Below are positions 1 to 12,606 of a DNA stretch of 32,000 nucleotides, piece after piece (the first letter of the stretch is position 1; the number at the start of each line of letters is the position of its first letter). Below the pieces are notes generated by a model that saw only the letters and a list, made by a program, of their open reading frames with translations, made no database searches and was not told the origin of the DNA. The stretch is taken from assembly GCF_000981785.2 (NCBI RefSeq), contig NZ_CP011304.1, forward strand, positions 660,001 to 692,000. Reading direction: 5' to 3'. Source of the stretch: Microcystis aeruginosa NIES-2549 (GTDB lineage: Bacteria > Cyanobacteriota > Cyanobacteriia > Cyanobacteriales > Microcystaceae). Both the position numbers and the translations under genes were made by a program.

Positions 1-55
1 TGCCTATCTTCACTAGAAAATTTATTTTGCACGACTACTTACATAATTTTTCTCT

Positions 56-2299
56 CTAAAGCCAGAATTGACAATCATCTTCTAATAAACTAGGATAAAT
101 TCCTTGTAAGCGTCGATAAGCAATAATATCCGCTCCATACAAAGGGATAGGTAAACGGGGATCTTTGAGAGAACCATAGTGAAGTAAAGTTAATTTTAAC
201 GTGGTGTCAACTAACTGTTTTAAATTTACTTGCTCTCCTAATTCATGAACTTTTAAGCGCAAGGGACGAGGAACACCAATTTTTTCAGAAACTTGGGACG
301 TTATCAGGATAACTTCCCGATTTGATAAAGCTAAAGCTAATCCTTTGGAGGGAGCATTTATCTGTTTTTGCTGAAGATTATAAAGTCTAGGAATGCCAGT
401 CTTATAACATTCTACGAGAATAAATTTAGCATTAATTGCTCTAGCTCTTGCCAGTAAATTTTCAACCTCCTTTCCTTGAAATTTACCATCTCTGTAAATG
501 AGAACTGTCTGATTTTTTAGTTCAGCTTGCGGTAAACAATTTTCCAGAATCCGTTGAGGAATTTCTTCTCCCTCGGTTAAACTATCTTCTACCCGACAGC
601 GAACAAATTCTCCCTGTTTGCCATATAGTCGCACACTTGCACAAACATTGAGACTCCCCGGCAGATTTTTTTTAGGCATCCTTCCCACATCTAAACCAAT
701 AAAATAATCGGCAATTTCTAGAGGTTCAGCAAGGACATAGGGTAAATTTCCTAATTTGGCTAGGATCCCTGGGACAACTTGATGGAGAATATTATTATAG
801 TTGCTCTTATTATTTAAAGTTTTCTCATAAATCATTTGAGTTATAACTCCACGATCCAGAAACTTTTTTTTAATCCAGGAATATAAACTCCCTTCTTCAG
901 TATTATCCGCATTGCGATCAGACTGGGGAAGAAATACTAAGGCAATATCTACAGGAATTTCTCCTCGAATTAATTGATCAACTGCTTCTTCCAGTCTAGC
1001 TCTTTTTTCGGATCCTACACCTTCGACAGAAAAATTTATTTGATTCTCTGGTGGCAAAATAGTCTCAAATTTATAAAGTTCTAATCGCTTTTCTAATTGT
1101 TCTCTAAAATCTCCTACTTTAAAACTATCTGGTTTGAGAATAGCTAAACGAATTTTACGAGCAGGATCCTCATATTCTCGATGACGTTTATATACACCAC
1201 CCTTCGATAATCCTTTGAGAGTTTCTCTTTTTTCTCCCCTTTCTCCCTTACCAAATAAGATGGGAGTTTGCTCAAGAGAAATAGAAGGAGTCCAAAAGAC
1301 TTCGGGGTATTCTTGGCTGTTAATACTTCTTTCTCTTAACTGAAAACCAAAGTTATTCAAAGTCTTTTGTGCTTCCTGTTTATACAACTTTAATAGTTTT
1401 TGTCGTTCAGCATAGAAAATTTTTGTTTTCTTTAATAAGTCTCCGTAATTAACTTGAAAAAAACTCTCATCCTTATCTGTCATACAGGGTTTTAAAGCTG
1501 CCAATGGATAAATATAATCCTGGGGATTTTTTCCAAATTGTACCGCAACTACTGGTTGATCCCGATGAGCTTCTTCTAATTTTCTTCGACTAATTGAACC
1601 CGTAGCTTTTGTTAATAGATACTCTCTTTTTTCCCCAATTGTACCCGCTATTCTAATAATTTTAGCTGTCCCATTAGTTTCTATAGTTTTAACCTTTAAA
1701 CCTACTAATAATTTAGCAGCATCTTGTCTATAGGGGTGATTTTCATAAAATTGTTCTAAATCTCCACTATAGACAATACTACTGTCAACAGTTAAACAAA
1801 TAGCCGGATCGGTGTCATTGATGATTTCTGCCCAAAAATCAACTTCTCTCCTTACCTGTACTTGGTTTTCACTTATCTCACTATCTTTAGGAAAAACTAT
1901 TGGATAGGAAAATTTACCAAATATTTTCAGAATTCTAACTGCTAATTGTGCTGTAACTAAAGCTGTTATCTGAAAGTCTTTTAGCCAATGAATAGAATAA
2001 TAGTGATCGCCAATATCTTCTCGTAAAACCTCTTGAATATCTGATAAAGCTTCTTTCCACTGTTGTAGAGAAGGAATAGATTTTTCATCTTTAGCTAATA
2101 CCCAAAAACAATTATCTTCAAAAATAACCACCACAGCAGGAAACTTATGACTGAATTGCCAACTAAAACGATTGCCTATTTTTTTAGTAACTTGATGATT
2201 AAACTTAAAACAATTCAAACAACTATTGTTGAGAGTTAAGGAACTAATTTCACTCAAAAATATTGGAGAGTTGGCTGTGTTAGCTACTGTGTAATTCAT
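56..2299 (-). CDS. Long prokaryotic Argonaute (pAgo) with PIWI catalytic tetrad apparently intact (DEDD)
   Basis: 747-aa ORF of full-length (N-PAZ-MID-PIWI) size. PIWI RNase-H motifs occur in canonical order: YFIGLDVGR (Asp1), TEGEEIPQ (Glu finger), VLIYRDGKF (Asp2), PIPLYGADIIAYR (4th position = Asp). MID-like 5'-end pocket pattern: LYSWIKKKF ... ITQMI ... ILAKLGN (Y-K-Q-K type). AAGGAGG lies 8 nt upstream of ATG 2299, inside the end of the upstream ORF. Confidence 0.85.
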   Translation of the reverse strand: MNYTVANTANSPIFLSEISSLTLNNSCLNCFKFNHQVTKKIGNRFSWQFSHKFPAVVVIFEDNCFWVLAKDEKSIPSLQQWKEALSDIQEVLREDIGDHYYSIHWLKDFQITALVTAQLAVRILKIFGKFSYPIVFPKDSEISENQVQVRREVDFWAEIINDTDPAICLTVDSSIVYSGDLEQFYENHPYRQDAAKLLVGLKVKTIETNGTAKIIRIAGTIGEKREYLLTKATGSISRRKLEEAHRDQPVVAVQFGKNPQDYIYPLAALKPCMTDKDESFFQVNYGDLLKKTKIFYAERQKLLKLYKQEAQKTLNNFGFQLRERSINSQEYPEVFWTPSISLEQTPILFGKGERGEKRETLKGLSKGGVYKRHREYEDPARKIRLAILKPDSFKVGDFREQLEKRLELYKFETILPPENQINFSVEGVGSEKRARLEEAVDQLIRGEIPVDIALVFLPQSDRNADNTEEGSLYSWIKKKFLDRGVITQMIYEKTLNNKSNYNNILHQVVPGILAKLGNLPYVLAEPLEIADYFIGLDVGRMPKKNLPGSLNVCASVRLYGKQGEFVRCRVEDSLTEGEEIPQRILENCLPQAELKNQTVLIYRDGKFQGKEVENLLARARAINAKFILVECYKTGIPRLYNLQQKQINAPSKGLALALSNREVILITSQVSEKIGVPRPLRLKVHELGEQVNLKQLVDTTLKLTLLHYGSLKDPRLPIPLYGADIIAYRRLQGIYPSLLEDDCQFWL

Positions 2300-2302
2300 G
2301 AT

Positions 2303-3133
2303 CTAAACCTCCTTATTTGCATAATCACAAATCGATGTAAAAGGACAATAACGACAGGCATAGCCACTTTGGGGCGGGAAAATATGATAAAAATCTTCGG
2401 GGTGATTTTTATATTTTTTTAGTTGTTGCTGATGTTTTTTGGACAGGAAAGCTAGTTCGATTTTAACTGCTTCTATTGCCTCGGAAGACAGGGAGATATT
2501 TTCTGAGCTTGTTTGGGTTTCTAAATTGTAAAAAGAAGCGACAATTTTTTCCTGAGGATAAAGGTAACTAGCCGCCAGTAAATAAACATGAGCCTGACGA
2601 CGATCAAAATTAGATTGACCAGTTTTCAAATCTAAAATATGTATAGTGTCATCAGCTTCTCTAAAAATACAATCAAAGGCAGCGGACAAATTAAACCGAT
2701 AGTTACCCTGCTCGATAACAATAGGTTCTGGATAACCTTCATCGCCTCTAGATAAATTAATAATCTCTTTATTCAATAAAATTGGTTGTTGATAGTAATT
2801 GTTTAAAATTACTAAAACCCTGGCTTGAATTTCTGGAGATTCTTGATTTAATTGCAGGATTTCTGCCACTTGTTCCACCCCATCAGAACCGGATAATCTC
2901 GCCGGCTCTTGATGAAACTCAAAAACTCCTCGTTGTGCCAACTTACCAATTTTTTGCGACTGATTATCTTGCGATAGTAATCTTTGAACTTCTGGTTCTT
3001 TGTTTCGCGCTTTTTCAAACCCCCGTTTTGTCTGACAATGCCAATTCTCATAGCCAATCGCTGGTTTAAGCGATCGCCAAAGACTATAGCTCATTGGAGG
3101 ATGCCAAGGCTTTTTGGGAAACTGACAGGACAC
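2303..3133 (-). CDS. Cas4-like PD-(D/E)XK nuclease with predicted 4Fe-4S cluster (RecB/Cas4 family)
   Basis: 276-aa ORF with GTG start at 3133 and GAGGGG upstream. Nuclease motifs: AAFDCIF (Asp), HILDLKTGQ (D-x-K), QAHVYLLAASY (QxxxY). Cys signature: N-terminal Cys (SC or HC) plus C-terminal CRYCPFTSIC (C-x2-C-x5-C), as in Cas4/AddB-type Fe-S nucleases. The stop is 3 nt before the pAgo ATG. Confidence 0.8.
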   Translation of the reverse strand: MSCQFPKKPWHPPMSYSLWRSLKPAIGYENWHCQTKRGFEKARNKEPEVQRLLSQDNQSQKIGKLAQRGVFEFHQEPARLSGSDGVEQVAEILQLNQESPEIQARVLVILNNYYQQPILLNKEIINLSRGDEGYPEPIVIEQGNYRFNLSAAFDCIFREADDTIHILDLKTGQSNFDRRQAHVYLLAASYLYPQEKIVASFYNLETQTSSENISLSSEAIEAVKIELAFLSKKHQQQLKKYKNHPEDFYHIFPPQSGYACRYCPFTSICDYANKEV

Positions 3134-3189
3134 AATTTTTCCCCTCGGTCAGGATAATGCTAGGATGACACGGCAGTGTTTGCTCTGGT

Positions 3190-3208
3190 GTTGACTAAAA
3201 TAATCAAC
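3190..3208. promoter_or_regulatory. Imperfect palindrome O1 (GTTGAcTAAAATAaTCAAC), candidate XRE operator over the early transcribed region of the Cas4-like/pAgo operon
   Basis: 7 of 9 arm positions are self-complementary. It shares the GTTGAC half-site with O2, with a 43-bp centre-to-centre distance (about four helical turns). It lies between the predicted leftward -10 (3221-3226) and the GTG at 3133. Confidence 0.5.
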
Positions 3209-3220
3209 ACCAATAAACTA

Positions 3221-3250
3221 ACTCTAGCCTATGTTGACTGAAATAGTCAA
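3221..3250 (-). promoter_or_regulatory. Candidate promoter of the Cas4-like/pAgo operon: TTGACT - 18 nt - TAGAGT (read on minus strand)
   Basis: The reverse complement of 3245-3250 is TTGACT and the reverse complement of 3221-3226 is TAGAGT, with an 18-nt spacer. The -35 is the right arm of palindrome O2. Confidence 0.4.
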
Positions 3251-3251
3251 C
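3233..3251. promoter_or_regulatory. Palindrome O2 (GTTGACT-N5-AGTCAAC), candidate XRE operator overlapping both divergent -35 boxes
   Basis: Perfect 7-bp arms. Each arm reads TTGACT toward one of the two divergent operons. Confidence 0.55.
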
Positions 3252-3263
3252 CCTTGATATAAT
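3234..3263 (+). promoter_or_regulatory. Candidate promoter of the XRE/ImmA operon: TTGACT - 18 nt - TATAAT
   Basis: TTGACT at 3234-3239 and TATAAT at 3258-3263. The GTG start at 3291 is 28 nt downstream of the -10. Confidence 0.5.
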
Positions 3264-3290
3264 TTTTTTTGAGCGATTGAGAGAAAAGCA

Positions 3291-3647
3291 GTGTCAGAAA
3301 CATTTGGACAGGTTATCCGCAAAGCTCGTCGAGAGGAAGAATATAGTCAGAGAGAACTAGCTAAGTTGATTGGGGTGGACTATACCTATCTATCGAAGCT
3401 AGAAAATGATCATGCGGGTTATCCTCCTAGTCAGCAAGTTATTGAGTCCTTAGCGACTCATTTAAAATTAAATGCTCAAACCTTAGGGGAATTGGCGGGA
3501 CGAATTAGTTCAGATGATCAAAAAGTCTTCAAAGAATTAGTTCAAAAATACCAACAAATGCCGATTTTATTGCGTCGCATGAAAGACAATCCTAATTTTG
3601 CTAAAAAAGTCATTTCTGAGGCGACAAAATTAGAACCAGAGGAGTAG
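3291..3647 (+). CDS. XRE-family helix-turn-helix transcriptional regulator (ImmR/CapH-like position)
   Basis: 118 aa. The N-terminal HTH_3 pattern is QVIRKARREEEYSQRELAKLIGVDYTYLSKLEND. It sits directly upstream of, and is co-oriented with, an ImmA/IrrE peptidase gene. Confidence 0.85.
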   Translation: MSETFGQVIRKARREEEYSQRELAKLIGVDYTYLSKLENDHAGYPPSQQVIESLATHLKLNAQTLGELAGRISSDDQKVFKELVQKYQQMPILLRRMKDNPNFAKKVISEATKLEPEE

Positions 3648-3652
3648 ATATC

Positions 3653-4318
3653 TTGGATATTATTAAACCCTATAGTTTTATTCCCAAAACAGAGATTGAA
3701 GCTCAGGCAGACAATATTCTGAAGAAAGTAAAAGCTCATCGTCGTCGTCCCTTAAAAAATTGCGATATTGCGGAAGCAGCGGCCGATCATTTTGATTTGG
3801 CTATTGAATGGACGGATATAAAGCCAGATAAAGAGGGAGAAATCGCCGCAATGATTATTCCCATAGAAAAGAAAATTATTCTCAATGAAGATGTAAAATT
3901 CTTAAAAGATTCCCAAAATTCATCCCTAGCAAAAGAAGGTTTTAAAAATTCGAGTTTAGCCCATGAAATTGGTCATTTTGTTCTTCATATTAATCAAACG
4001 GCCGTCTCTAACTTTTTCGAGCGAATCAATCAGGGAGATTCCTTAGGGACAATTCAACCTTTTCTGTGTCGGACAGTTGATTCTAGCCAAAGAATTGAAT
4101 GGCAAGCTCAATATTTTGCCAGTTGTTTACTAATGCCGATGAGTGAGTTAGAGAAAGCCATCAAGGGACGTGACTTGACCAAATGGGGTCTTCTGTATGC
4201 GATCGCCGACGAGTTGGGAGTAACTATTACTAATCTTAGAAGTCGTTTAGAAAGTCTCCATTGGATTAAAGTCGATAAAAAAGTAATTTATCGGGGCAGT
4301 AATTTTCCTAAGAGATAG
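3653..4318 (+). CDS. ImmA/IrrE-family (M78, COG2856-like) zinc metallopeptidase
   Basis: 221 aa. It has the HEIGHFVLH (HExxH) motif and a downstream EWQAQYFASCLLMP (third-ligand Glu plus the LLMP motif typical of the family). TTG start 5 nt after the XRE stop, with GAGGAG 8 nt upstream. Confidence 0.85.
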   Translation: MDIIKPYSFIPKTEIEAQADNILKKVKAHRRRPLKNCDIAEAAADHFDLAIEWTDIKPDKEGEIAAMIIPIEKKIILNEDVKFLKDSQNSSLAKEGFKNSSLAHEIGHFVLHINQTAVSNFFERINQGDSLGTIQPFLCRTVDSSQRIEWQAQYFASCLLMPMSELEKAIKGRDLTKWGLLYAIADELGVTITNLRSRLESLHWIKVDKKVIYRGSNFPKR

Positions 4319-4358
4319 CTTCAATGTTCCGAGGGAGATTTTGCCCATCTTGATCGAC

Positions 4359-5354
4359 TTATTTACTAATAATTTCGGCGGTTTGCGAGTTAGGAATCGG
4401 TTCAAAGTTGTGGTCGTCAGCCAGATATTCTGGATAGGTGGAGAATTGGGGTAGTATTTCTAGGGTAAAAGCTTCGGCAGCTTTTGATCGATAACGATTC
4501 GGGTTAATAATTACCGACAAAGTGCGTCGTATTTCCACGTCTTTAATTCGGGTAGCGTGGATAACTCCCATTTGTAGTTCTTTTTCGATCGCTGTCACCG
4601 AGACAAAAGCCGCCCCTAAACCCGATTGTACGGCATTTTTAATCGCCTCGATCGAGTTAAGTTCCATCTCCACTTTTAAGCGTTTGGTATCGATCTCGCA
4701 ACGAGTTAAAACCTTGTCGATGACTTTGCGAATCGTCGATTGGGAATCGAGGGTGATAAATTTTAGTCGATATAAATCCTCTTTTTGAATCATTTCTACC
4801 TTAGACAGAGGATGAAAAATAGGCAGGACTAAAGCCAGTTCATCTTCTGCGTAGGGGATAATCCGCAGGGTTTCTTGTAATTCGGCGGGAACTTCCCCCC
4901 CGATAATGGCTAAATCCACTTGACCGTTAGCAACGCTCCAAGAGGTGCGACGGGTGGAATGAACTTGTAGCTGTACGGATACTTCTGGATATTTTTGCCG
5001 AAAAAGCCCGATCATGCGCGGAAGAAGATAGGTTCCCGTGGTTTGGGAAGCACCGACGATCAGGGTTCCCCCTTGCAGATTTTGTAGATCTTCGATCGCC
5101 CGACAGGTTTCTTGACAGAGAGTGATAATTTTTTCGCCGTAGCTTAAGAGTAGGTGTCCCGCTTCTGTTAATTGAGCTTTCCGACCGCCTCGGTCAAATA
5201 AAGGCACATTTAGCTGTTTTTCGAGGTTTTGTACCTGAAGACTGACCGCCGGTTGGGATACATACAGGGTATCTGCCGCCCGTTTAAAGCTTCCTTCGGC
5301 AGCGATCGCTTTGAGAATTCTCAGTTGGTCTAGGGTGAAAGGAATGTCGGTCAT
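4359..5354 (-). CDS. rbcR: LysR-family transcriptional regulator, RbcR/Ycf30 type
   Basis: [48 protein letters not shown] is the highly conserved Ycf30/RbcR N-terminal HTH. I place the start at ATG 5354. The 31 upstream codons in the ORF track look like a read-through extension. Confidence 0.8.
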
Positions 5355-5510
5355 AGAAAGCCTCAAAAAGAGCGACAGGAGAAGGGGAGGGCAATAGCGA
5401 CAAATCTTAAGCCAGTGCAGATAAATACACTGAATTGACAGTACCACACCACGGGGATCAATGCTTCAGCTAGTTCGATGATCGGTTATTTTAGCTGTCA
5501 GCCTTGAATT

Positions 5511-5556
5511 AGTTATCAGTTATCAGTTATCAGTTATCAGATGCGAGTTATCAGTT
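5511..5556. repeat. Heptanucleotide microsatellite (AGTTATC/TCAGTTA)n, about 4 perfect units plus degenerate units
   Basis: Direct reading: agttatcagttatcagttatcagttatcag atgcg agttatcagttca. The same unit occurs at 12611-12645 and 23208-23256. Confidence 0.9.
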
Positions 5557-5947
5557 CACTGATTAAGCTGTTGACTATAGCGCTTTTCACGTTACTGAGG
5601 TATCGACAAGTTTTGCCAACAAAGGGTTTAAGCCCCTTGCCCATGCCTCATTCTGATGAAAACTGCTATATCTAAATTACTCGTTAAGATTGCAGGGGAG
5701 CAGGGAGCAGGGAGAGGCAGTTTGAGCATTTGTACTAAAATTTTTAATACGCAGTTTAAATTCAGTACAGCTTACTAGAACTCTTGCAAATTAATTAGGG
5801 CTTGCTGAATAAATCTAAAAACCTTGTTGGATAAGAATTTTAGACTTTTTTCCCATCAAAAAGTGCCAGACATTGGGGTGATCGGGGGGAAGTTTAGGCA
5901 CTTTTTCCCTGAAAATTAGGTAATTGACCCCCTGAAAATCGCTAAAA

Positions 5948-5986
5948 CCCTACACCCTACACCCTACACCCCACACCCTGCCCCCA
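5948..5986. repeat. C-rich heptanucleotide microsatellite (CCCTACA/CCCCACA)n
   Basis: ccctacaccctacaccctacaccccacaccctgccccca. The same family occurs at 12721-12750 and, as the complement, at 23026-23153. Confidence 0.9.
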
Positions 5987-6230
5987 CGAAAAACTTTTTG
6001 CCGCAAACCCTAATTATATGTTATAATTATAGACTAACTAATTTTCCCCAAAAAATAGCCAATCAGTACATTAGTTCTGAATAAAAATTTGAAGTTTAAC
6101 TTTTAACTCAAAACTCTTTAGAGATGCTTTAATTTGGTTATCAAAACCTCTTTATTTAAGCAGCACAAACCATCTCAATTATAAAAATTGAGAATAAATT
6201 ATCCTTGACTTGATTAATGTTTGGCAACTT

Positions 6231-6655
6231 TTAAGAAGCCTCTGTACTTATCCCTAACTCATAATTATAAATAGCCGCTAACAAGTTAACTATTAAACCA
6301 TATCTTAGACGACTATTTCGATATTTACAGGATAATATTTTCAAGATTTTGAGTTTACTGTTTATAGGTTCAATGATAATTTTTTTTGGGGCTAAAGCCT
6401 TGTTATACTACTTTTCTAAGCCTGTGAATTTCTATTTTTCGGTGTATAAATATTACTATGATATTGAGATATTCCCTGGTAACTACTGTCTTCTATGCTG
6501 GTAGCTAAAGGATGAAAACGAACTCGACTTTTTTTAAATAAACTAAAATCATGACCGCTGCCTTTGATCCGGAAGACACAGATCATTTCCTCCGTATTTT
6601 GATCAGCGTATATGTTTTTTGAAAAGCAGAGAGGAGGCAATCGGGGCATCCCCAC
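6231..6655 (-). pseudogene. Degenerate IS4/IS5-type (DDE) transposase remnant, frameshifted and truncated
   Basis: My minus-strand translation of 6231-6398 gives KALAPKKIIIEPINSKLKILKILSCKYRNSRLRYGLIVNLLAAIYNYELG*. This resembles the C-terminal ...IE..N..LK.F..L..(R/K)Y(E/R)... block of DDE_Tnp_1 transposases. It is out of frame with the 79-aa ORF 6416-6655 (...IYTPKNRN...). I saw no intact N-terminus or terminal inverted repeats. Confidence 0.4.
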
Positions 6656-6791
6656 TGCGCTAGGCTGAGAGTGGGGAATTCCCGTGCCATATTTTCGTTA
6701 AGGTCTTTATCTCGGCTGACCTCATTTCAAATCATCTATAGTATTTTCTACTTTTCGCCATTTACCTCTATACTTAAGTATTTTTTAATAT

Positions 6792-7346
6792 TTACTTTTG
6801 TGAGGATTGGTCAGGTTTTATGAAGTAATGCTGCGGATGGAGGGAAACGCCGAGAATTTGTGATATCCACACCTCAAAATCGTGGATTGGATAAGCTGCC
6901 CCCCCCGTCAAGGGATTTACCATTGGTTTCACCAGAATGGTAAACATTCCCAGACGATTTCCCGCTAAAACATCGGTAAACAAGCGATCGCCAACCATAG
7001 CAATTTGTTGGGGGGGGAGACTCATGGCTGCCATCGCTTGCCGGAGTTTGCGTCGAGAGGGTTTCACCGCACCGAGAAGGTAGGGAAGTTGTAAATTATC
7101 AGCGATCGCACCGATGCGATTTTCACTCAGATTATTGCTGACCAACCAAATCGGTAGATAAAGACGCAAGGAATCGACCCAACGCTGTAAATCGTCAGAA
7201 ACCGTCGTTTCCTGGAGGGGAACAAGGGTATCGTCCACATCGAGAATCAATCCCTTAATCTGATGCTGACTCAAAATCTCCAGAGTGAGACCGAGAATCG
7301 TATCCCCTAAAATTAAATCGGGTTGTAGAATTTTTGCTCTAGTCAT
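6792..7346 (-). CDS. YqeG-type HAD superfamily (subfamily IIIA) phosphatase
   Basis: Motifs LILDVDDTLVP (DxDxT) and VGDRLFTDVLAGNRLGMFTILVKPM. I prefer ATG 7346 (MTRAKILQPD...) over the TTG at 7397 used by the ORF track. Confidence 0.75.
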   Translation of the reverse strand: MTRAKILQPDLILGDTILGLTLEILSQHQIKGLILDVDDTLVPLQETTVSDDLQRWVDSLRLYLPIWLVSNNLSENRIGAIADNLQLPYLLGAVKPSRRKLRQAMAAMSLPPQQIAMVGDRLFTDVLAGNRLGMFTILVKPMVNPLTGGAAYPIHDFEVWISQILGVSLHPQHYFIKPDQSSQK

Positions 7347-9861: not shown

Positions 9862-11280
9862 ATGATAAACCTAGAGACCCTAGAAGGTTGGTTAAATGCT
9901 CCAGTGGAAAATGAGCGACTAGAATTTAAACAGGCTAAAAATCAATTTGATACAATCAAACTGTTAAAATATTGCGTCGCCCTTGCTAATGAAGGAGGTG
10001 GCCATTTTATCTTAGGTGTTACCGATAAACGTCCCCGTAAAATTGTTGGTTCACAAGCCTTTCCTACACCCGAAGAAATTAACAGCATTAAATCGCTAAT
10101 CGTTCAAAAACTTCGCTTGCGCGTGGAAATCACCGAATTGGCCCACCCTGATGGTCGTGTCTTGGTTTTTGAAGTGCCAACCCGTCCCACAGGACAACCT
10201 ATCGCCTTTGAAGGTGCTTATCTAATGCGAGCAGGGGAAGACTTAGTATTCATGACACCTGATCGGCTTAAGCTCATCTTTGCTGAAGATCAACAAGATT
10301 GGTTTTGTCAATCCGCTCGCTCTCATGCCAGTCCAGATGAGGTTATTGACCTACTCGACACCCAAACCTACTTTAAATTGCTCAAGCTTCCCTATCCTAG
10401 CCATCGTGATGCTGTTTTAGAAAGATTACAAAGCGATCAACTCCTTGACAAAACATCAAAAGGTTGGACAATTCCTAATTTATCTGCCATCCTTCTGGCC
10501 AGACAACTTGAGAGCTTTTCCCCTACCTTAGCGCGTAAAGCACCACGAGTGATTATCTATGAGGGAACAGGTAAAATTAAAACTCGACTGGAACAGACAG
10601 GAACTAAGGGATATGCTGTGGGTTTTGATGGTTTAGTTAATTTTGTCCACGATTTAGCCCCTCAAAATCGCGTCATCGAGGAGGTTCTTAGGGAAGAAGT
10701 GAAAATGTTTCCTCCACAAGCTTTGCGAGAACTGATCGCCAATGCTTTGATTCATCAGGACTTTCTCGCTACAGGCGCTTCGGTGATGATTGAAATGTAT
10801 GATGATCGAGTAGAAATCTCTAACCCTGGTATTCCTTTTATCAAAGTAGAACGCTTTATAGACGAATATCGCTCCCGTAATGAGCAATTAGCTGACATAA
10901 TGCGTCGTTTTGGCATTTGTGAAGAAAAGGGCAGTGGTATTGATAAAGTTATTTCCGCTGCCGAGAAATTTCAACTTCCCGCACCAGATTTTAGAGTAGG
11001 TGAGATCCGAACAACTTCTATCCTATTCGCTCATCAGGATTTTGGCAAAATGAGTCAATCTGACCGTATTCGCGCTTGTTATCAGCACTGTTGTCTCCTC
11101 TATGTCGATAATCAACGGATGTCTAACCAAACCTTACGAAATCGCTTTTGTTTAAATGAATCAAAAAACAATACTGTTTCTCAAGTGATTGGGGCAACTA
11201 AAGAAGCAGGACTGATTAAACTTGACGAATCTGAATCTAAATCAACTCGTTATGCTCGTTATCTCCCCTTTTGGGCCTAG
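9862..11280 (+). CDS. AlbA_2 (Schlafen-like divergent AAA) + HATPase_c_4 + C-terminal wHTH protein; putative ATP-binding regulator
   Basis: 472 aa. The N-terminal ENERLEFKQAKNQF...ALANEGGGHFILGV matches the AlbA_2/Schlafen box pattern. The central ALRELIANALIHQDF...IEISNPG...ICEEKGSGIDKV matches the RecG-C-terminal-like HATPase_c_4 pattern. The tail is MSNQTLRNRF...VSQVIGATKEAGLI. AAGGAG lies 8 nt upstream of the ATG. Confidence 0.7.
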   Translation: MINLETLEGWLNAPVENERLEFKQAKNQFDTIKLLKYCVALANEGGGHFILGVTDKRPRKIVGSQAFPTPEEINSIKSLIVQKLRLRVEITELAHPDGRVLVFEVPTRPTGQPIAFEGAYLMRAGEDLVFMTPDRLKLIFAEDQQDWFCQSARSHASPDEVIDLLDTQTYFKLLKLPYPSHRDAVLERLQSDQLLDKTSKGWTIPNLSAILLARQLESFSPTLARKAPRVIIYEGTGKIKTRLEQTGTKGYAVGFDGLVNFVHDLAPQNRVIEEVLREEVKMFPPQALRELIANALIHQDFLATGASVMIEMYDDRVEISNPGIPFIKVERFIDEYRSRNEQLADIMRRFGICEEKGSGIDKVISAAEKFQLPAPDFRVGEIRTTSILFAHQDFGKMSQSDRIRACYQHCCLLYVDNQRMSNQTLRNRFCLNESKNNTVSQVIGATKEAGLIKLDESESKSTRYARYLPFWA

Positions 11281-11331
11281 ACTAGCCTTGAGCGAAGTGT
11301 ACACTGAGCTTAGTCGAAGTGTGGAAATGCT

Positions 11332-11419
11332 AAAAAGTGCTTCAACGCAAATCCATTTTAGGGATGTCAAATCGGCGAAACCCTTATACAGCGAGCAAAA
11401 AAGTGCTTCAACGCAAATC
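11332..11419. repeat. 22-bp direct repeat AAAAAGTGCTTCAACGCAAATC, two copies with 66-bp period
   Basis: Copies at 11332-11353 and 11398-11419, identical by direct reading. Confidence 0.8.
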
Positions 11420-11498
11420 GACATTTTTCCAAGAGGAGATTTTATCATCGCGTCCACACGGGAGTGGGACTTGTGGACGACAACGGCGATACATTTCT

Positions 11499-12606
11499 TT
11501 AAACTGCACCCCCCAAACGTAAATAGGCTTCAATAAAGCTATCTAAATCCCCATTCATTACCCGGGTAACATCGGTGGTTTCCACATTACTGCGGAGATC
11601 CTTAACTAATTGATAGGGATGAAAAACATAGTTACGGATTTGATTGCCCCAAGCGGCCTCCACCATATCGCCGCGAATTTCGGCGATCGCTTGAGCCTGT
11701 TGTTCCCGAGCGATAATTAACAATTTCGCTTTTAATAAAGCTAGGGCTTTTTCTTTATTTTGTAATTGCGATCGCTCTTGGGTACAACGTACAGCGATAC
11801 CTGTGGGAAGATGAACCACACGCACGGCAGTTTCCACTTTATTAACATTTTGTCCACCTTTTCCCCCCGATCTAGTGGTGGTAATTTCTAAATCTTTATC
11901 GGGAATTTCTACCCTCACCGCATCATCGCCCAAAATTGGCATCACTTCCACCCCGGCGAAACTGGTTTGACGTTTACCATTAGCATTAAAAGGGGAAATT
12001 CTGACTAACCGATGGGTGCCTTTTTCTCCTTTCAGATAACCGTAAGCATAAGTTCCGGCAATCTCAATTGTCACCGATTTAATTCCCGCCTCATCTCCTT
12101 CTGATATTTCCGCTAAAGTGACTTTATATCCCTGTTTCTCGGCCCAGCGAGAATACATTCTCAGGAGCATTTCTGTCCAATCTTGGGCATCGGTTCCCCC
12201 GGCCCCCGCATTAATCGTTAAAACTGCTCCTTTTGCGTCGTAGGGACCATTTAAAAGCTGTTGCAATTCCCAGCGATCGAGGTCATGCTGTAAATGAGTT
12301 AAATTGTCCGTCGCTTCTTCTAGTAAAGTTCGATCGGATTCTAATTCTAATAACTCGATAATTGCCTTAGTATCTTCTAATTGTTCACACCAACCCTGAT
12401 AGGTTTCTAAAGAAGATTTACATTCGTTTAGTTCTTGCAGGGTTTTTTGAGCAGTATCGGGATTATCCCAAAAAGTGGGGACGGCTGCCACCTGTTCTAA
12501 GTCTTTAATTTTAGCCCTTAAAGTGGGTAAGTCAAAGATAGTCCTGGGTTTTACCCAGGCGCAATCCTACTATCTCGATACCTTTTTTTAGTTCTGATAT
12601 TTCCAT
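11499..12606 (-). CDS. prfB: Peptide chain release factor 2, expressed via programmed +1 ribosomal frameshift
   Basis: The main ORF (11499-12491 in the track) carries the RF2 SPF motif ([16 protein letters not shown]) and the GGQ motif ([11 protein letters not shown]). The upstream frame runs from ATG 12606: [24 protein letters not shown] then TGA. It rejoins the main frame by +1 at CTT TGA C, giving ..[27 protein letters not shown]. Confidence 0.9.
11504..11524. repeat. Right copy of the direct repeat bracketing the AlbA_2 cassette; overlaps the last codons of prfB
   Basis: CTGCA CCCCCCAAACGTAAAT. The reverse complement encodes YLRLGGA of RF2. Confidence 0.6.
12531..12540 (-). other. prfB +1 frameshift site TAT CTT TGA C
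   Basis: Minus strand reads tat ctt tga c (12540->12531), the canonical CUU UGA C autoregulatory shift site. An SD-like AGGA sits a few nt upstream (cccaggac). Confidence 0.85.

Follow-up and report, generated by a model that had tools for sequence, protein, structure and literature searches.

Long-A prokaryotic Argonautes (pAgos) are usually described as constitutive, stand-alone nucleases, and both the timing of their action and the way in which they avoid sampling self DNA pose questions. These questions take a concrete form in a four-gene cassette at positions 56-4,318 of a 32,000-nucleotide stretch of Microcystis aeruginosa NIES-2549 (assembly GCF_000981785.2, contig NZ_CP011304.1, positions 660,001 to 692,000; hereafter, the window), in which the genes for a Cas4-like nuclease and a long pAgo lie divergently from those for an XRE-family helix-turn-helix (HTH) regulator and an M78-family metallopeptidase: is the nuclease operon held under a protease-sensitive transcriptional switch? 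Our analysis suggests that it is. We read the cassette as an APACE1 effector (a pAgo and its ACE1 nuclease partner) joined to a derepression switch of the CapH/CapP, DdrO/IrrE and ImmR/ImmA type, and we put the probability of this reading at roughly 60%. The XRE/M78 pair is a conserved neighbour of APACE1 and probably switches it on under stress.

The layout of the locus was taken from a six-frame list of open reading frames (ORFs). On the minus strand lie the genes for the nuclease, which we identify below as ACE1 (2303..3133; 276 aa, GTG start), and for the pAgo (56..2299; 747 aa, ATG start); on the plus strand lie those for the XRE regulator (3291..3647; 118 aa, GTG start) and, after a gap of 5 nt, the M78 peptidase (3653..4318; 221 aa, TTG start). 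A 157-bp control region (3134-3290) separates the two operons. At the junction of the leftward genes, the TAG stop of ACE1 (2305-2303) is followed by a 3-nt gap and the pAgo ATG at 2299, and direct reading of the sequence places the ribosome-binding site of pAgo, AAGGAGG (2308..2314, minus strand), within the final ACE1 codons; the spacing of binding site, stop and start suggests translational coupling from ACE1 to pAgo. An initial annotation, made from the letters alone, had described these four frames, the control region, the embedded ribosome-binding site with its 3-nt spacing and a set of protein motifs, and all were found where it had placed them. The domains that it had named were likewise recovered by Pfam, all above the curated cut-offs (Piwi, E = 1.7e-15; PDDEXK_1, 2.5e-11; HTH_3, 5.7e-11; Peptidase_M78, 2.6e-9), and PADLOC matched pAgo_II (1167 bits), Aga_Cas4-like_Nuc (447 bits, 7e-135), capP (9.9e-20) and capH (3.4e-9). 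NCBIfam has no model for pAgo or ACE1, and a search of it gave, for the regulators, only generic HTH/antitoxin matches below cut-off. The GC content of the cassette is 0.34-0.38, versus 0.43-0.47 in its flanks and 0.41-0.51 over most of the remaining window, which is consistent with a mobile defence island or horizontal acquisition.

On sequence identity, the leftward pair is the Microcystis APACE1 system, which was already characterised in 2025 by structure, biochemistry and in vivo assays, in work that gave the pairing of pAgo and ACE1 its name (Bobadilla Ugarte et al., Mol Cell 2025; PMC12094033). The nuclease is ~94% identical over 275 residues (E = 1.9e-177) to MaACE1 of M. aeruginosa PCC 7806 (PDB 9IAC), and the pAgo matches CtAgo of Chroococcidiopsis thermalis (PDB 9IAD) at E = 5.6e-261 and shares 93% identity with the main cluster of Microcystis pAgos. 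By these comparisons the pAgo is an allele of MaAgo, in the same clade as CtAgo and within the cyanobacterial ACE1-associated subclade. The likeness to the published systems of PCC 7806 and C. thermalis covers the two proteins, their order, the coupled operon and the cyanobacterial clade.

The initial annotation had called the pAgo a catalytically intact slicer, and alignment bears this out. Its PIWI motifs (GLDVG, 535-539; GEEI, 577-580; YRDG, 602-605; YGADII, 721-726) supply a tetrad D537/E578/D604/D724 that aligns with D533/E574/D600/D721 of CtAgo and is invariant in 20 homologues (alignment A1), so that this long-A pAgo is predicted to be active. The window pAgo and MaAgo are equal in length and share the numbering of D537, the residue altered in the published, inactive mutant MaAgo D537A (PMC12094033). 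The Y-K-Q-K reading of the MID pocket held in part: Y473, Q488 and K515 are invariant, but position 477 is lysine here and tyrosine in the consensus of 20 relatives. In the nuclease, the Cas4 hallmarks noted earlier are all present (FDCIF at 153, ILDLKTG at 166, QAHVY at 180 and CRYCPFTSIC at 260-269), as are D154, D168-x-K170, the N-terminal Cys33 and C260/C263/C269. ACE1 proteins, a clade of the Cas4 family, are ~278 aa long and have a D-DxK motif with one N-terminal and three C-terminal Fe-S cysteines (PMC12094033), and the 276-aa window nuclease shows each of these features. We identify it as a PD-(D/E)XK endonuclease of single-stranded DNA (ssDNA), in which Cys33 and C260/C263/C269 make up the Fe-S "iron staple".

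Much of what such a pair does has been established. CtAgo and MaAgo cleave ssDNA guided by small interfering DNA (siDNA), and ACE1, an endonuclease acting on ssDNA, joins pAgo in a heterodimer and trims its guides; in E. coli, MaAPACE1 lowered plasmid transformation and plasmid content and prevented the collapse of cultures infected with phage Bas01 (PMC12094033). The DNA endonuclease activity of MaeAgo had been described earlier (Lisitskaya et al., NAR 2023; PMC10250240), and the association of pAgo with Cas4 in M. aeruginosa had been noted by Makarova et al. 2009. At 93-94% identity, the window allele would be expected to form the same heterodimer, cleave under siDNA guidance and trim guides. 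The suggestion that it had not been worked out what a Cas4-like protein does as the partner of an active long pAgo is thus superseded, the matter having been solved and tested in 2025 for Microcystis APACE1 (PMC12094033), and we dropped this partnership as a question after the matches to PDB (9IAC, 9IAD) and to the literature.

The regulatory half was approached through its linkage to APACE1. We assembled 80 loci, one per species, each with an alignment of its pAgo, and searched their ORFs with the window proteins; 79 of them extend far enough upstream of ACE1 to be informative for the regulator pair. ACE1 and pAgo are adjacent and co-oriented, with ACE1 preceding pAgo in 80/80 loci, and XRE followed by M78 stands divergently and directly upstream of ACE1 in 72 of the 79. 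Those 72 loci come from Microcystis, Nostocales, Oscillatoriales, Pleurocapsales and Chroococcidiopsidales, and the identity of their pAgos to that of the window falls from 96% to 48%. Beyond the four genes the flanks are not conserved across loci, LysR being found only in Microcystis. The proposal that the four genes form a conserved module is therefore upheld by the presence of the pair at 72/79 loci. Among the four proteins, pairwise distances are correlated, for example between pAgo and ACE1 (r = 0.92) and between pAgo and M78 (r = 0.81; Mantel, 0/999 permutations), which fits inheritance as one unit, with shared species phylogeny contributing to the correlation. In the reverse direction, a search of metagenomes with the M78 protein gave 50 informative loci, 29 of which carry APACE1, among them essentially every locus whose M78 is at least ~44% identical to that of the window; the remaining 21 pairs are more distant and face other genes.

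What kind of peptidase does the pair contain? The M78 protein has HEIGH at 104-108 and EWQAQ at 149, and H104, E105, H108 and E149 are invariant, together with a PFLCR motif that includes C139 (alignment A2); HExxH is kept in all 80 M78 ORFs scanned in related loci. In its AlphaFold2 model (predicted local distance difference test score, pLDDT, 89.6), the peptidase domain is joined by an HTH-like helical domain (helices 163-201) and, at the end, by a beta-hairpin. The closest PDB folds are CapP (7T5T), IrrE (3DTE) and ssDNA-bound PprI (8SLN), with CapP 7T5T the top match in both sequence and fold. No GAF domain was found in it by coverage of the capP profile (which aligns only at positions 4-150 of 242), by its 221-aa length, in the model or by the lengths of its homologues, those listed all being ~200-230 aa. 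ImmA is likewise a short, GAF-less M78 protein. We therefore regard the window peptidase as CapP-like in its catalytic core and, probably, in its autoinhibition, and as ImmA-like in domain content.

These features divide the earlier "CapP-like" label, which stands for the catalytic core and the fold and fails for the GAF domain that lines the ssDNA groove. In CapP, the peptidase occupies residues 1-141, the HTH domain 142-182 and the GAF domain 182-288, and ssDNA sits in the groove between peptidase and GAF domain (Lau et al. 2022, bioRxiv 10.1101/2022.04.27.489752; Calloji et al. 2026, bioRxiv 10.64898/2026.05.16.725639; hereafter, the CapH/CapP papers). Since the window M78 is without the GAF domain, its activating signal and sensor would not be those established for CapP and IrrE, and the ssDNA trigger proposed in the initial annotation cannot be assumed. 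The same papers describe, in many but not all CapP proteins, a cysteine-switch loop (C114, D117, D118) between H101 and E128. C139 of the window protein lies in the equivalent loop and is followed by D143, and its contact with zinc is putative.

The regulator itself is the most conserved of the four proteins (58-84% identity; alignment A4). Its model (pLDDT 85.8) shows a five-helix HTH domain spanning residues 5-68 and a C-terminal part of two helices, at 74-99 and at 101-113; in the C-terminal part F80, P91, R95, P101 and F103 are invariant, with a conserved LLRRM at 93-97. By analogy with the known pairs, we presume that it is a repressor and the substrate of M78. CapP cuts CapH at F82-R83, in the first helix of the CapH C-terminal domain (CapH/CapP papers); a cleavage site near L94/R95 of the window protein would be our guess from that precedent.

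The control region contains sites where such a repressor could act. Two 19-bp palindromes lie 43 bp apart: O1 (GTTGACTAAAATAATCAAC, 3190..3208), with one mismatch to GTTGAC-N7-GTCAAC, and O2 (GTTGACTGAAATAGTCAAC, 3233..3251), a perfect match. They are the only sites with two or fewer mismatches in the 32-kb window. O2 bears TTGACT on both strands, and these are the -35 hexamers of both divergent promoter candidates. The candidate sigma-70-type promoter of XRE-M78 (3234..3263, plus strand) combines TTGACT, an 18-nt spacer and TG-n-TATAAT; as a consensus match (11/12) it has the top promoter-like score in positions 1-5600, and it lies 28 nt before the XRE start. That of ACE1-pAgo (3221..3250, minus strand) combines TTGACT, with the -35 inside O2, an 18-nt spacer and TAGAGT (9/12), and O1 sits between its candidate -10 element and the ACE1 start.

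These operators recur in the related loci. The strict motif occurs at 1.76 per kb in control regions versus 0.0022 per kb outside them, a difference of ~800-fold. We had begun from the strict definition (GTTGAC-N7-GTCAAC, at most one mismatch), which missed 34 loci, and a relaxed core was adopted in its place; the relaxed palindrome, GTTGA-N7-9-TCAAC, is found in 69 of 71 control regions. Measured from the XRE start, the palindromes lie at ~36-40 and ~74-83 bp on its upstream side, a spacing that is fixed. The gap between XRE and ACE1 is 200 bp or less in 32 of the 71 loci, including the window and every Microcystis locus, and 200-450 bp in 18. CapH/CapP-like pairs are always encoded upstream of, and opposite to, the operon that they control (CapH/CapP papers), and the divergent arrangement to which the initial annotation had drawn attention is of this typical kind, here with conserved palindromic operators over the candidate promoters. 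Autoregulation of XRE-M78 is universally implied by operator placement; for loci with a short gap, the window among them, control of ACE1-pAgo from the same sites is strongly implied as well, and at the other loci it is only plausible.

From the observed gene identities, conservation, operators and folds we infer repression, cleavage, a trigger and a leftward promoter, in the following way. An XRE dimer would occupy both GTTGAC-N7-GTCAAC palindromes; with O2 overlapping both -35 hexamers and O1 downstream of the leftward promoter, both operons would be kept low at rest. A signal of stress or invasion would activate M78, probably through displacement of Cys139 from zinc, and the activated peptidase would cut XRE in its C-terminal helical dimerisation region. 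Cleaved XRE would then leave the operators, and APACE1 would be transcribed. Protease-gated control of the pAgo operon, as the initial annotation had envisaged it, is in this sense well motivated. A bolder version holds that in its native form APACE1 comprises all four genes and is induced by a signal, the gate being a GAF-less cysteine-switch M78 that differs from CapP and IrrE in what it senses or in how it senses it; this version we offer tentatively, as possible and on balance doubtful. One candidate signal would then be ssDNA fragments or DNA ends that also feed guide production by ACE1 and pAgo, which would couple the induction of APACE1 to the availability of guides. If true, this would be the first instance of a pAgo whose transcription is gated by a protease, and M78 proteins of this kind would form a sensor subclass of their own among defence-associated M78 regulators.

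Several observations weigh against a derepression switch acting on APACE1. Seven of the 79 informative loci have APACE1 with unrelated genes adjoining in place of the regulator pair (one retains an XRE fragment), and the pair is therefore dispensable. The position of the operators is anchored to XRE and variable with respect to ACE1, from 1 to ~1000 bp, so that autoregulation is the sole feature that they imply universally; in 21/71 loci the gap exceeds 450 bp and extra ORFs, co-oriented with ACE1, lie between. The promoter calls are consensus matches only, the leftward one weak at 9/12. Expressed from pBAD in E. coli, MaAPACE1 is not toxic (PMC12094033), and a selective reason for tight repression is not evident. 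On the side of the peptidase, the F-[LIVM]-C-[RK] pattern is missing from ~11 of the 80 M78 ORFs that were scanned, and the GAF domain and most residues with which CapP contacts ssDNA (K195, W196, Y264, W280) have no counterpart. The alternative that draws most on these facts is that XRE and M78 form an autoregulated module that travels with APACE1 and exerts no transcriptional control over it, M78 perhaps acting on ACE1, pAgo or an invader protein, or the pair serving as a separate sensor. The fixed spacing to XRE, the long-gap loci, the seven loci without the pair and the finding that related pairs adjoin a wholly different operon all speak for it. In the window and 31 other loci, however, a gap of 200 bp or less necessarily puts the operators within the leftward promoter or leader; the intervening ORFs of the long-gap loci, being co-oriented with ACE1, could be the first genes of the same operon; and every characterised HTH/M78 pair cleaves its own repressor. 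We consider this alternative unlikely, if the best placed of those that we weighed.

The operon beside the related pairs deserves description in its own right. More distant XRE/M78 pairs (M78 ~41-44% identical to that of the window) face a recurrent divergent operon of five ORFs (~90, 234, 121, 336 and 365 aa), behind which come genes for an ECF sigma factor and a zf-HC2 anti-sigma factor; an example lies at 1723-5434 (minus strand) of locus L139, and others in L114, L117, L129-L131, L136, L145, L148, L159 and L160. The five ORFs had no match in Pfam, PADLOC, NCBIfam or PDB-sequence searches. Several of these pairs have a similar GTTGAC...GTCAAC operator ~35-40 bp before XRE, and the operon could encode an uncharacterised system for stress or defence, governed by a switch of the same type.

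The space upstream of ACE1 holds further elements in some of the related loci. A conserved ~73-aa ORF (MKKQPFNPDQLCFSIGRPLPVLLEEVQRTSRNPNLRKAAKQMLEGLRTFELANQTEVSKSVKAKTAIHEILTK) precedes ACE1 by ~30 bp, in the same orientation, in 25 of the 80 loci, in Nostocales and Oscillatoriales (L023, 8892-9110, plus strand; homologues include L013, L016, L020 and L064). It is absent from the window, gave no match in Pfam, PADLOC, NCBIfam or PDB searches, and may belong to the APACE1 operon as its third gene. In ~10 loci the ACE1 start is preceded, at 25 nt, by a perfect hairpin, GCCCTCTA-N3-TAGAGGGC. Six Oscillatoriales loci have an MMADHC-like ORF (PF10229, 1e-15, ~206 aa) between XRE and ACE1, in the orientation of ACE1 (L063, 8369-9040, plus strand; also L008, L009, L049, L050 and L058). 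In a Hormoscilla metagenome-assembled genome, the XRE-ACE1 gap measures 1058 bp (L046, 8115-9174; pAgo at 9995-12208) and holds more than 12 dispersed operator palindromes; its pAgo and M78 frames are broken, which could reflect a decaying locus or assembly errors.

Returning to the switch, a second alternative retains transcriptional control and assigns it differently: XRE would be a concentration-dependent activator and repressor like the controller (C) proteins of restriction-modification systems, timing the onset of APACE1 after horizontal transfer, with M78 as an accessory. Two adjacent palindromes ~40 bp apart before the regulator's own gene would suit such a protein, as would the horizontal acquisition suggested by the low GC of the module, and the PADLOC "Control_protein" profiles match at 5e-6. 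The C proteins C.BclI and C.AhdI are among the top fold matches of XRE, beside CapH-N (7T5U, TMt 0.87), DdrO, ImmR and SinR, in a search that returned generic HTH matches and discriminated no subfamily. C proteins, however, are not known to have a peptidase partner, whereas a catalytically intact M78 is conserved here and is sometimes fused to XRE; the window regulator has an additional conserved two-helix C-terminal domain; and its match to the capH profile is stronger than those to C proteins. Taken together, these points make a C-protein role improbable.

The fusions just mentioned bear on how the two regulators act. Beside APACE1 in ~10 loci stand proteins in which HTH_3 and Peptidase_M78 are fused (L013, 6744-8553, minus strand; also L012, L014, L016, L028, L032, L035, L037, L043 and L066), each accompanied by a second, free M78. 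The fusions are ~365 aa and the free proteins ~230 aa, both with HExxH, and the operator variant at these loci is GTTGAA-N7-TTCAAC. Natural fusions of this kind ("Rosetta-stone" evidence) indicate that XRE and M78 work together. They also recall RmrA of RosmerTA, which joins the same two domains in one protein, and so a toxin-antitoxin reading, in which HTH and M78 are the antitoxin and APACE1 or an unseen partner is toxic. Both window proteins match the PADLOC RmrA profiles weakly (E ~1e-7 to 1e-2), and there is a weak match to the NCBIfam spr1629 repressor/antitoxin model. The window HTH and M78 are nevertheless separate genes, the capP match (9.9e-20) is far stronger than any to RmrA, no RmrT-like gene was found among the four, and MaAPACE1 is non-toxic in E. 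coli; we think a toxin-antitoxin role very improbable.

We note in passing that 23 of the 80 loci have a Uma2-family PD-(D/E)XK "putative restriction endonuclease" gene (PF05685, 3.8e-48, ~195 aa) on the strand of M78 and ~91 bp downstream of it (for example L013, 6048-6635, minus strand); the window has no such gene. Cyanobacterial genomes carry Uma2 genes in great abundance, so that their adjacency to M78 may be coincidental.

That the pair is a chance neighbour, or a leftover ImmR/ImmA module of a decayed prophage or integrative and conjugative element, is a reading that its conservation effectively refutes. Mobile elements often carry HTH/M78 pairs and the window M78 shares the GAF-less layout of ImmA, but the pair is kept in 72/79 species-level loci with unrelated flanks, and the pAgo and M78 distance matrices are correlated. 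The window flanks hold housekeeping genes (LysR, HAD phosphatase, methyltransferase, ferrochelatase, RF-2, MurD and similar); neither integrase nor phage genes were seen in the 10 kb that we examined.

Read as a derepression switch on APACE1, the cassette can be set against the known systems. It resembles CapH/CapP in its small HTH protein with C-terminal helices and its M78 zinc peptidase, in the encoding of the pair upstream of a defence operon and on the opposite strand, in a conserved cysteine that follows HExxH and precedes the third zinc ligand, and in having its best PADLOC, PDB-sequence and fold matches there. It differs in that CapP is ~288 aa long with a GAF domain and the window M78 is 221 aa, with neither that domain nor the ssDNA groove between peptidase and GAF; in its gene order, repressor then peptidase; and in that the neighbouring system is a pAgo nuclease. 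With ImmR/ImmA and DdrO/IrrE (PprI) it would share, by analogy, cleavage of the repressor by an M78 protein, and IrrE and PprI are among the top folds. ImmR/ImmA of ICEBs1, however, resides in a mobile element and controls genes for excision and transfer, and the flanks of the window cassette are unlike it; IrrE of Deinococcus has a GAF domain and a dispersed DNA-repair regulon, whereas the window operator is found only in the local control region. The published APACE1, finally, is a two-gene system expressed from pBAD, to which the window cassette adds the conserved divergent XRE-M78 pair with its operators.

The operons named in the CapH/CapP papers are CBASS, DISARM, DUF2188/DUF3892 and ubiquitin-like operons, and pAgo is not among them. 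Text searches of the APACE1, Ryazansky 2018 and Makarova 2009 papers turned up no mention of an HTH protein, a peptidase or transcriptional control, and in the literature searched, the coverage of which was incomplete, we found no link of pAgo or APACE1 to an HTH/M78 regulator or to protease-gated control. The effector and the regulatory logic are thus known, and what appears to be new is their combination, the GAF-less subclass of peptidase and a defined operator.

If over 90% of APACE1 loci are indeed under a conserved repressor/protease switch, native expression would be conditional, and the published heterologous pBAD assays may misrepresent its physiological timing or dose. For the CapH/CapP field, the locus offers a natural GAF-less peptidase in which triggering by the cysteine switch can be tested apart from the known ssDNA groove. 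Microcystis is, moreover, a bloom-former of ecological importance.

Outside the cassette, three features of the window may be recorded. Downstream of the LysR gene, 5448-6790 comprises 1.3 kb with no ORF of 80 aa or more, in part rich in AT (GC 0.35 over 6001-7000); it contains a short heptamer repeat (ATCAGTT units, 5508-5556) and several imperfect inverted repeats, and Rfam and tRNA scans found nothing there or elsewhere in the window. At 9862-11280 (plus strand), ~5.5 kb from the cassette, lies a gene for a 472-aa protein with Schlafen AlbA_2 and HATPase_c_4 domains. At 11499-12491 (minus strand) lies a 330-aa release-factor ORF (PCRF and RF-1) with a GTG start, in which the PCRF profile is entered at its position 13; prfB is well known for its programmed +1 frameshift, and the shortness of this ORF may reflect it.

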